The notes beneath the pieces were generated by a model that worked only from the letters and a program-made list of their open reading frames with translations, did not search any database and was not told the DNA's origin. DNA of 63,906 bases, counting the filler, from Dugesia japonica (taxonomy: Eukaryota), in assembly GCA_001938525.1 (NCBI GenBank). It is 6 parts of 6 records of this genome, joined end to end, with 100 filler letters (N's around TTAATTAATTAA, not from the genome) between each part and the next. Parts side by side here need not be neighbours in the genome. Positions count along the whole stretch, not along the records: positions 36,702 to 54,441 come from MQRL01569677.1; 5 more parts are not named here. One strand, written 5' to 3'. A program made the position numbers and the translations under genes. Of the stretch, positions 46,301 to 50,220 are shown piece by piece. Positions within the stretch are counted from its first letter, which is position 1. Every line of letters begins with the position of its first letter.

Positions 46301-47369
46301 ATGTCAATCATCGGCCGGAGAGAGAAATCCACACGACGACAGAAGTGCAACAAAATATTCACAAGAAACAGGAACCAACAACCAATAGGAGGTCGAGATT
46401 GCAGAATAAGCACAAACGATTGCTTGAGCAATGAGAGCTCCTCAAACTTCAAATCGGAGAAATGAATGAAATATGGATACCCGAGAAAAGTATTCAGAAT
46501 TTTTAATAAAAATTTTATGCACTTTTTTTTGGACAAATTTTACCTAACAATTATCGAAATAATCAGGAGGACTACGAAGTAATTTTTATTTATTTATTTT
46601 TTATTATGTTTTTTTTATGTTAATAAAATATTTTAAAATCATAACCAAAATCGATATCCGAGTGCCGTTCCTAGGAAAGAGTTTAGGATGTAACATGGTG
46701 GTTGATGAATGTAGAGTATTGGAGAAATTTTTTGGAAGAATGAGAGTACAGAATTAGTTGAAAAAAAATGAAAAATAGGTGTTAATAGTTAGGGAGAGAT
46801 GAATAGGACGTTTTTGCGTAAATGCGAGAAACGAGACTCTGGGAAATTCCAACATTTTGAATCGTGATCGTGAAATATTTATGATCCCAATTATTTTTGT
46901 TTGGTTTGCGTGATTGGGGAGTAAAATAACATATGTCCTTTGTAAAATTATGTTTTATCAGTAAAAGAATAATTAAATCATTTAGCTATTATTATTGCTT
47001 ATTATTTTTTATATACATTTCATTAGTAATTTATAAGGGAGATAACGGGGACGAGAAAAGATGACTGTTTCCAGAAGGTATCTTCTCTGGTTCGCGTTAT
47101 GTAATGATGGGAAATAATGCTAGGCCTCAGGCCGAAAAATCGGTTGAAATTTCTTTTAACTTTACATTAATGGTATTATTGATATTATCACTATATTAAT
47201 GCTTATTTTTTATGTTAATTGATTTGCAATTGTTAGATGAGCAAACCTAGACGAAATTTCAAGCAGCCTCAATATATCTAGCCCTATATCGATTCAAATG
47301 GATATTATTATATTGAATGNNNNNNNNNNNNNNNNNNNNNNNNNNNNNNNNNNNNNNNNNNNNNNNNNN

Positions 47370-47708
47370 GCCGAGGTCCAAGGCATGATCCGAGAAGAGA
47401 AGATATCTCGCATCGACGAAACACGCAACTTGCGAGCCGATCTGGAGGTGGCCAATTTGCGGGTCGCCATACTGGAAGCCAATAACCAGCTACTTTCTTC
47501 CCAACGAGATCGATTGATGGCGGTTCTTGAGGAGACCGAGCCGACAGTAACTGTCGGGGACGTTCGGCAGCCGGAGATGGATCCAGACCATGACGAGGGC
47601 AAAGAAGGAGAACTGGATTCTCAGGTCGAACAGGAAGAGGGCGAGATAATGAGGAGTTTGCTGGGCCTGAGCGGTGCTAGCACGGCCTCAGGTGTTAATG
47701 CGAAATAA
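47370..47708 (+). CDS. Coiled-coil/acidic hypothetical ORF within the giant insertion (5' end in a gap)
   Basis: GC-rich open frame AEVQGMIREEKISRIDETRNLRADLEVANLRVAILEANNQLLSSQRDRL...; the stop overlaps AATAAA. Confidence 0.5.
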   Translation, partial: AEVQGMIREEKISRIDETRNLRADLEVANLRVAILEANNQLLSSQRDRLMAVLEETEPTVTVGDVRQPEMDPDHDEGKEGELDSQVEQEEGEIMRSLLGLSGASTASGVNAK

Positions 47709-49376
47709 AATTCTTAAAATTTATTGAAGAATTTGTTCTATTGATTTTTCTTATTATTTATTTTTTATTGAGTTATGGCAAAATTGTGAGAGTGTGATAC
47801 GTACGTCACGATAATTTGCAGAGGCAGGGTTAAATGAATTTAGTTTTATTTTATTTCATTGCGTTTGTTCTGAAGTTCAGAGAATTGACATAAATGAGAG
47901 CATGGAAAAATATAAAATTATAAAATATATCCATTGAACATTAATTATTTCAGAAATAATGTCAAAAATATTGCAGAGGAATTGCAAAACATTTTCAAAG
48001 ATCACTTTGGATAAATTGAACATTTCTGTTAGAATTAAATATTTGTTGAATTATTTATTATTTATTGAATTAAAGTATTTATTTTAATTCATTAGAAATG
48101 TTAATTCTAGATCTTTTAAACTCATGTTTTAGTCGTTAGTAATTTGTTATTTATATTTTAAAATAGTTTTATTTTTTAAAGACATTGACATAAATGAATT
48201 TCAATTTTATCGTTCGCCATTGTATCTGTTAATATTTAAATTTAACCGTGAAATCAGAGTATGGTGTAAGGAAATGTTGGAAAATGAGGAAACTGATTTG
48301 ACCAATGTAGGGATCAATTTTATTTGTTCACAGAAATGAGATAAGTTAATTTTCGTTATCATTCTTGGAATCGATAATTATAGATTTATTAAACGTCATA
48401 TTAAATGTTGAAATGGTTTAAATATCGTGTTAGTTTGTATAATGGTTAGGTATGACCAATTTAATTTTTTTATTGACAACGAATACTGAGCAAATGAGTG
48501 CGTTGGTAATTGGGGTTCATGAAAAATAAACGTAAGACGCGATACTGCAAAGTCGCGCTGAACCCGCGGTAAAGAGGGGCATGTCACAGAGGTGACTAAA
48601 TGCTTGTGATCTTTAGGTATGCCCCTAGACGAAATAGATCGTATTTATTTAGTTACAGAAATAATCGAGTATGAAGAGTGCAGATATTAAACTCAAATTA
48701 TTCAAAATCCTAAAAACCCGACATAACCATGGTGAAGTAACCGAAATTAATTGTAGAATGAAATATGTATGGGAAACACTGTTCAATCGCCGCACCAATA
48801 GAGTGATTTTCCGACGGTACTGAACCATCATAACCAAAATGTCGGGGTTCTCACCGACTACTCAAATTTATCTAAGGAGGACACAGATAATGAGAGAGAG
48901 AGTGGACCGCAGCTGAGCGACAAGCCTTCTATCAATGGAGCGGGCCCGATCGCACCCTAGAGGTCCTCCATCGTGCCACTGCCATAGACTGTGAAACACT
49001 CCAGACCACCCATGTATGACAGGACTGTCCCTCCGACATCCCTGTGTCTGCCGTTCATCTATCACCCCTCATTAGACTAAATGAATATTTGAATAATTCT
49101 TTATGGGAGCTGTGTAATCGGGCAGACGGCGGTGTCTCCGAAAACGGTGATAACTTCGACACGGGTAACGTTTAAACCACTCTAGTTTAATTTTTTTTGT
49201 AGTCTTATGTTTTGCTGTGAAATAAAATGTATTTCCTACGTTCNTTAATGTCTTACAATAGTGTAATTTTAAAATTAGTAACCTCGTAGTTTAAAGGTAT
49301 TTGAGAGGTTGGCATTGCAGATTAACAGGTCTTTAATACAACATGACTGTTATAATGTTTGATGTTTATTTTTAAG

Positions 49377-49701
49377 TACACTCCTCGTTAAACCGACCAC
49401 CTATCCCACCAAAAAGGTGAGAGATTCCAGTGAGGACCAAGAAATGACTTGGGACTTCTATCGCCTCGTCAAACGACGATGGGAGGCAGATACAGCCAGC
49501 GCCCATAGCAAGGTGGGTAAATACAAGAGGAAATGTCTAGCTTTTAAAAAGGAGGTTGAGGTCTCTCATGCTCAAGAAAGAGTCTGGAAGGCGCAAGTAG
49601 AATCTTTCGCGGAGATTATCCGGTCCCTCCATGATCGTGAGAATAAACTGGTGACGGACATTTTACTGCTTCGGAAGGCAATGCCCCTCGAGCCTCGATA
49701 A
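49377..49701 (+). CDS. Coiled-coil hypothetical ORF/exon within the giant insertion
   Basis: Preceded by an acceptor-like TTTTTAAG; GC-rich open frame; followed by AATAAA (~49752). Confidence 0.5.
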
Positions 49702-49858
49702 GGGTACCCAGACAACATGACCATGATGTCGGTTATTTTCAGATATTATAAATAAAAGATTTTTTCTCTTAATAAATCCTTTCTTCCTATTTTTCTACTT
49801 AATTAATAATTCATTTGTTTTAAGAGAAATAAATTATCTAATTATCCATTTTGTTTAG

Positions 49859-50220
49859 TGCCACGAATTTTATTTCCCAATAGTTTAAGACGTTGTCATA
49901 GGATAATCCGGCGACTTCAATTAGAACGGCACTACAAATGTCAGTCCGAGAGTGCCTTGCTGAAACACCTGTCTCAACGAAATAGGTTGATTAAGAAGTT
50001 AGATGTCATCGTGAAAAAGCAGGGAGACCTAGCGGAACAAACAAAACAACTCTTCCAAAATAAAATCGACTTTTTACAAAAATACATCACAGATCTATCC
50101 CGCCAGTTAGGCAATGCGTCGTGGTTTAACTGGGATGATAATGACGACATTGCAGCGTTCGATTTTATTCCTGAAGAGCCAACCCAGTGGTTAGACCCAA
50201 GTGCTCTCGATAATATGTGA
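49859..50220 (+). CDS. Coiled-coil hypothetical terminal exon within the giant insertion; paralog at ~17992-18375
   Basis: Acceptor TTTTGTTTAG immediately upstream. The frame is open in both diverged copies and the only visible indel (~5 codons) is in frame. Confidence 0.65.

Follow-up and report, generated by a model that had tools for sequence, protein, structure and literature searches.

Selected and gene-like cassettes within a putative solo long terminal repeat of the planarian Dugesia japonica

Can a long terminal repeat (LTR) carry genes of its own? The question is raised by a 7.1-kb LTR-like unit in the genome of Dugesia japonica (assembly GCA_001938525.1), which we analysed within a window of 63,906 nt, filler included, made of 6 parts of 6 records; positions 36,702–54,441 of this window are MQRL01569677.1. 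The unit holds five GC-rich, gene-like cassettes, all on the plus strand and here called C0 to C4 (Table 1). C4 encodes a protein on which purifying selection has been strong, and it is retained in two lineages that share a non-coding terminus. The unit certainly carries at least one selected orphan gene, and several further cassettes are probably selected too. On balance we lean towards the cassettes being accessory genes that belong to a giant Gypsy-type element, lie within its solo LTR and act as spliced last exons with their own poly(A) signals.

The evidence for C4 comes from its paralog in a second, diverged copy of the end of the unit. A previous reading of this DNA made without database searches (the sequence-only reading) had described C4 as conserved at the protein level in that copy with an in-frame indel, and had taken this as a sign of selection. 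The motifs are as described: C4 and the paralog (aligned over 17980–18375) are 60% identical and differ by one in-frame indel of 7 amino acids, exactly one heptad. Differences are distributed 38/17/73 over the three codon positions of 118 codons. The proportion of synonymous differences (pS) is 0.81, and so saturated, against a proportion of non-synonymous differences (pN) of 0.24, giving pN/pS of 0.30 (95% 0.21–0.40). A codon model returns a ratio of non-synonymous to synonymous rates (dN/dS, omega) of 0.034 with an upper bound of ~0.12. An omega of 0.15 is rejected, as is an omega of 1 (likelihood-ratio statistic 77.7, p ~1e-18), so that the dN/dS check bears out selection on the last cassette. 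The non-coding terminus is conserved alongside C4 in both copies; the second copy corresponds to the last 620 nt of the unit and has the same terminal ending.

The ends and the insertion site of the unit make a solo LTR of Gypsy type its most likely identity. The unit begins with TGTNR, which the available text of PMC2836005 gives as a Gypsy-type terminus, has a short inverted terminus ending in CA, and is bordered by a target-site duplication within the 4–6 bp size of Ty3/Gypsy elements. The chance of a 4-nt CTAC match at the two borders is ~0.008. The insertion splits a decayed hAT-like transposase. Motifs read by eye are collinear across both flanks in what we take to be the hAT order, and the Dimer_Tnp_hAT match in the flank is weak (E 0.0013, under the curated Pfam cut-off). 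Two other fragments in the window were considered as parts of the unit and rejected: a gag at 51200–51875, which lies outside the CTAC duplication, and a pol at 19500–21400, which is not joined to the unit.

Table 1. Features of the LTR-like unit, its surroundings and its second copy, in window coordinates
Feature	Position	Strand	Details
Inserted unit, likely solo LTR	43324–50470	+	Length 7,147 nt, of which 294 are N (three gaps plus single Ns); starts TGTTG, ends CAACA
Left target-site duplication	43320–43323	.	CTAC
Right target-site duplication	50471–50474	.	CTAC
Host element: remains of a hAT-like transposase, interrupted by the unit	41903–43323 and 50471–50693	-	Dimer_Tnp_hAT and motifs
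Candidate upstream promoter	43757–43956	+	Three CCAAT (43757, 43877, 43915), TATATT 43951; from a motif scan, function putative
C0	45507–45721	+	72 codons with a single stop inside; AG in phase 1; AATAAA 45742
Possible remnant of a sixth cassette	46275–46465	+	Moderately GC-rich island after a gap; AATAAA 46505; coding only candidate
Candidate internal promoter and leader exon	46887–47077	+	CCAAT 46887, ATTGG 46913, TATA 47010, ATG 47061, donor GT 47078 (phase 2)
C1	47370–47708	+	112 open codons; in-frame ATG 47385; AATAAA overlapping the stop
Structured non-coding block	48533–48620	+	Stretch most often matched by RNA reads of relatives
C2	48877–49175	+	Broken: frame closed near 48888–48899 (GA run), stop 49017–49019; AATAAA 49221
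C3	49377–49701	+	Phase-2 AG; 107 open codons; own ATG 49444; AATAAA 49751
C4	49859–50220	+	Phase-1 AG; 119 open codons; no Met before the last residue
Non-coding 3′ terminus of the unit, conserved	50300–50470	+	Common to the second copy; reads of relatives on 50387–50432
Second diverged copy of the unit's 3′ end	17972–18620	+	On a different scaffold piece; C4 paralog and terminus ...CAACA
C4 paralog	17972–18375	+	Phase-1 AG; AATAAA 18387

The sequence-only reading described a tandem array of at least four same-strand GC-rich islands separated by AT-rich spacers. All four are present on the plus strand, with GC contents of 0.55 (C1), 0.51 (C2, over 48900–49175), 0.49 (C3) and 0.41 (C4) against 0.24–0.29 in the spacers, and C0 adds a fifth outside the range of that reading. 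The array is one of unrelated members: no cassette matches another in blastp at E up to 10, and an origin of the cassettes as tandem duplicates is rejected on this ground. The reported internal stop of C2 is real, and the frame is also closed just upstream of it. With C0 and C2 broken, this copy of the unit is decaying; translated with X for its stop, C0 carries a DETDLQC...MFP stretch. In dinucleotide shuffles an open frame of the observed kind was reached in 16/2000 cases for C4, 72/2000 for C3, 299/2000 for C1, 1584/2000 for C2 and 1667/2000 for C0, figures that are flattered by the choice of cassette bounds on open reading frames (ORFs). Only C3 and C4 stand out singly in this test, and C1 is not significant alone.

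The borders of the cassettes fit those of terminal exons, as far as sequence features can tell: an AT-to-GC step at an AG, a stop codon and an AATAAA. It had been claimed that most cassettes follow a polypyrimidine-AG and precede an AATAAA, and this is largely so. C0, C2, C3 and C4 have the AG, with 8, 9, 10 and 12 pyrimidines respectively in the 15 nt before it (9, 7 and 11 at three host acceptors in the window); the 5′ end of C1 lies inside an N gap (47320–47369), which hides any acceptor. An AATAAA starts no more than 60 nt past the stop in four of the five cassettes, the exception being C4 (p 0.019; five of six with the paralog, p 0.006; background 0.26). GC content rises at the AG from 0.23 to 0.53 in C0, from 0.23 to 0.47 in C3 and from 0.17 to 0.35 in C4, and the acceptors of these three cassettes resemble those of the three host introns.

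C4 and C3 are predicted to be coiled-coil proteins without membrane spans, and C1 weakly so. Modelling places a single helix at residues 9–86 of C4, followed by a low-confidence tail, and two helices in C3 (mean predicted local distance difference test score 65.5). A simple heptad score, bearing on the coiled-coil check suggested with the sequence-only reading, favours two cassettes: scores as high were reached in 11/500 shuffles for C3 and 15/500 for C4. C4 has a basic N-terminal third, a long helix and an acidic-aromatic tail, with charges by thirds of +7/+4/-8 (+8/+3/-7 in the paralog); C3 has a basic stretch and then the predicted coiled coil, and C1 a zipper-like N-terminal half and an acidic tail. 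By analogy, the charge and helix layout of C4 would be fitting for a nuclear protein that regulates transcription of the element. None of the six peptides has a membrane span (highest 19-residue hydropathy 0.06–1.23).

Searches at near lengths found no homologues of C4 (7 candidates), C1 (9) or C3 (2), and a profile of the C4 pair had 0 matches among 1.84 billion representative proteins; the collections searched may contain few proteins of the planarian's animal group. Pfam assigned no family to the cassette peptides above cut-off, and membership of the bZIP family was rejected because no Pfam bZIP match was found. The best ESM Atlas scores are all below 0.9 (C4 0.77, C3 0.88; CCDC3-like coiled coils, a lead only), and Foldseek gave 0 matches of the C4 model in the PDB. 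Searches of metagenome contigs and viral contigs found no related loci.

For expression we matched reads of four raw RNA runs from three studies to the unit at 88% likeness, sampling 6–25% of each run; the runs may come from another strain. Expression of this copy of the unit was essentially not seen in the sampled runs. A search across sequencing runs listed no RNA run containing the unit; seven runs contained 0.21–0.30 of the words searched and two contained 0.06–0.07. Partial read matches concentrate on 48533–48620, 50387–50432 and an AT repeat, with few on C0, C1 and C3. Together with the second copy in the window, these matches of conserved blocks to reads from diverged relatives indicate a dispersed multi-copy family. 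Among the 40 of 91 read differences listed, 8 of the 9 inside C0, C1 and C3 fall on third positions and are synonymous (C0 2/2, C1 3/3, C3 3/4), a result that rests on a handful of reads. Because the reads of relatives touch these three cassettes with mostly synonymous differences, related cassettes appear to be present in RNA and, on these thin data, look constrained.

How would such an array be expressed? LTR-internal promoters near 43950 and 47010 would drive short leader exons, and the choice of acceptor and of poly(A) site would then yield a single small protein from each message. Lacking a start codon, C4 requires an upstream exon, whereas C1 and C3 may start from their own ATG. The acceptors of C0, C4 and the paralog are in phase 1 and that of C3 is in phase 2, which makes a single common leader doubtful; there would probably be more than one leader. 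In such a scheme C4 could act as a nuclear regulator of the element, akin to the accessory transactivators of complex retroviruses. The scheme recalls the adenovirus major late unit, in which a leader is joined by splicing to one or another downstream exon and these exons have poly(A) sites of their own; adenovirus is a DNA virus, and the likeness would be one of expression logic only.

The sequence-only reading went further and suggested that one common leader may be spliced to every cassette, the cassettes serving as alternative terminal exons within one transcription unit. The terminal-exon-like anatomy it relied on is there: the cassettes are on the same strand, four of the five have the AG–stop–AATAAA layout, the phase-1 acceptors agree with one another, and an early frame shift in a decayed C3 could account for its phase 2. 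We nevertheless consider a common leader unlikely. The sole clear candidate with an ATG and a donor (47061–47077) is in phase 2, in frame with the acceptor of C3 only and not with that of C4, and lies downstream of C0; its bins (46887–47077) have zero depth in the four RNA runs. C1 and C3 have an ATG of their own, and no joint from a leader to a cassette was seen in any of the four runs.

We consider it quite improbable that the unit is instead a non-autonomous DNA transposon of the Ginger type, whose ends resemble those of Gypsy elements, or another cargo element with small genes. Ginger elements, in the available text of PMC2836005, share with the unit a TGTNR start and 4-bp duplications, reach up to 7 kb and have introns, and no link of the unit to gag-pol was found in the window. 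According to the same text, Ginger inverted repeats are 40–270 bp long. The unit's termini show complementarity at 8/10, 11/20 and 16/40 positions, which is gone after ~9 nt; such short terminal complementarity fits an LTR and not Ginger, and when the 400-nt ends are aligned locally the best match amounts to AT-rich noise. Ginger1 duplications are CCGG or CCGT whereas that of the unit is CTAC, and no transposase remnant was seen inside the unit, as far as tblastx against the hAT fragments of the window and Pfam on the cassettes go.

A partial assembly chimera or a nested insertion, with the five cassettes not all of one element, is highly improbable. It would draw on the three N gaps inside the unit (44105, 46192 and 47320) and on the stretch 44263–45450, which is unlike the rest of the unit and scarcely covered by RNA reads. 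Against it stand the matching ends and the duplication in a collinear host gene. The stretch 47370–50470 is gap-free, so C1 to C4 share one contig with the terminus. We regard as most improbable of all that the cassettes are captured host last exons, passive cargo without function for the element: a GC-rich exon in an AT-rich intron followed by AATAAA is typical of host terminal exons and the five sequences are mutually unrelated, but the C4 protein has been kept past synonymous saturation, still attached to the element terminus in both lineages, and no cassette has a relative in the searched protein collections, which may hold few proteins of the animal group.

Several results weigh against the cassettes being spliced accessory genes of a Gypsy-type element. 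Within the window, the unit is not joined to a second LTR, a primer-binding site, a polypurine tract or gag-pol. The LTR-encoded accessory proteins proposed in the sequence-only reading are partly supported, by the LTR-type ends, the target duplication and the selected C4 gene. Three N gaps lie within the unit, and the selection estimate comes from the one pair of C4 and its paralog. Acceptor-like AGs are frequent (chance ~0.21 per 30 nt); the GC step at the AG is weak in C2 and lacking in the C4 paralog (0.33 to 0.30), and no AATAAA lies within 100 nt of the C4 stop, where the paralog has one. Heptad scores are not significant for C1 (180/500), the C4 paralog (121/500), C0 and C2, and Pfam at E up to 1 gave no bZIP match and only weak coiled-coil families below cut-off. 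The four RNA runs placed 25, 363, 41 and 65 reads on the unit, of which 25, 359, 41 and 65 fit only partially and five match at 99% or more. With this copy barely covered, none of the four runs has splice joints or pile-ups of read starts or ends, and depth over C2 and C4 is zero.

The neighbourhood of the cassettes holds further non-coding features. The block at 48533–48620 is hairpin-rich, better conserved in the RNA reads of relatives than any other stretch, and lies directly after an AATAAA at 48525; it could mark an R region, a poly(A) site or a packaging signal. The stretch 48520–48640 folds with a z of -2.72 and 0/200 shuffles are as stable, and an Rfam search of the block gave 0 matches at E up to 1. 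For the 3′ terminal stretch of the unit, the predicted fold is no more stable than in shuffles (z -0.06 and -0.85). An ATGTCGG-type motif recurs at 48713–48850, 49709–49735 and 45703–45716; it forms stems at two places, no better than in shuffles. The stretch 44263–45450 has Asn-rich, decayed minus-strand frames and may be a nested insertion or else a contig placed wrongly. No primer-binding TGG was found after the second copy; both copies lack a following primer-binding site and a junction with gag-pol. In tblastx the unit did not match the gag, reverse transcriptase and hAT fragments of the window; the Pfam search of the unit covered the cassettes.

The window as a whole is AT-rich (mean GC 0.27), has N gaps and contains pieces of intron-bearing host genes and many decayed transposons. 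Its parts, which need not be neighbours in the genome, are joined by 100-nt linkers (44 N, TTAATTAATTAA, 44 N) at 8577, 17565, 26454, 36602 and 54442. Host gene pieces include S28 serine carboxypeptidase exons with short introns (16920–17455), a TBP-domain exon (34471–34836, minus strand) and a PH-domain exon (40546–40833, minus strand). There are three decayed Gypsy-type pol fragments with RVT_1 and RT_RNaseH matches (4987–5987, plus; 19500–21400, plus; 29967–30473, minus), Tc1/mariner-like decayed frames recognized by eye (18780–19180 and 53081–54000), and other DNA transposons marked by two pairs of long inverted repeats (1642–1763 with 5974–6104; 19199–19471 with 24044–24330). The gag-like fragment beyond the CTAC duplication has three CCHC knuckles (zf-CCHC E 4e-08), of which the first is broken, and then an Asn-rich decayed frame; the Gag of Burro, a giant planarian element, also has three knuckles according to the available text of PMC6431247.

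By analogy, Burro would be the likeliest kin of the unit. Burro and GYPSM1 are giant Gypsy-like LTR elements of planarians whose polyprotein has Gag, BIR, BCL2-like, Env-like and Pol domains. As far as the accessible part of PMC6431247 goes, they share with the unit an AT-rich animal genome, multi-kb terminal repeats and the mention of accessory ORFs; unlike in the unit, the extra domains are in the internal polyprotein, with an upstream accessory ORF, and not in genes within the LTR. The available portions of PMC8532177, PMC11410931 and PMC13465017 state nothing on the LTR content of Burro. At 7.1 kb (294 N) the unit is longer than the LTRs of Ogre elements, which measure 1.9–6.5 kb (PMC6431247, same portion).

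Other elements share one or another trait with the unit. The sag gene of mouse mammary tumour virus (MMTV) is a protein gene inside a retroviral LTR that is kept by selection (PMC11998498, available text); it encodes one type II membrane protein of a vertebrate retrovirus, whereas the unit has five unrelated cassettes and no membrane span (highest hydropathy 1.23). Drosophila MDG1, of the Gypsy superfamily, likewise encodes small accessory proteins in an invertebrate, with alternative polyadenylation after sORF1 and a nuclear sORF1 product; in the available text of PMC11952523 its sORFs differ from the cassettes, which have acceptor-like starts inside the terminal unit, in lying upstream of gag, coming from unspliced transcripts and including a transmembrane sORF2. 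A transmembrane segment of the kind found in sORF2 (FAST-like) and in MMTV Sag is absent from the cassette peptides. The extra ORFs of plant Ogre, Tat and SIRE elements and ORF3 of bdelloid rotifers are lineage-specific accessory ORFs too, some coiled-coil, and the ORF3s come from spliced messages; in the accessible parts of PMC6317226 and PMC5408684 these plant and rotifer ORFs are situated, unlike the cassettes, beside the polyprotein region. A targeted search of open-access literature turned up, among the records listed, no LTR described as carrying an array of genes.

An LTR is usually regarded as a regulatory repeat without coding content, to which MMTV sag, a single gene, is the classic exception. 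We advance, as a tentative possibility, that in giant retrotransposons of this animal group the LTR is a multi-gene accessory unit, whose LTR-driven leaders are spliced to at least five alternative last exons for lineage-specific nuclear regulators, and that each solo LTR, dispersed in the genome, stays a self-contained and expressible array after the loss of gag-pol. If true, this would extend regulation in the style of complex retroviruses to an invertebrate retrotransposon. It would also help to explain the length of these LTRs, and solo LTRs could go on supplying proteins from cassette genes that are short orphans, which repeat masking would hide.

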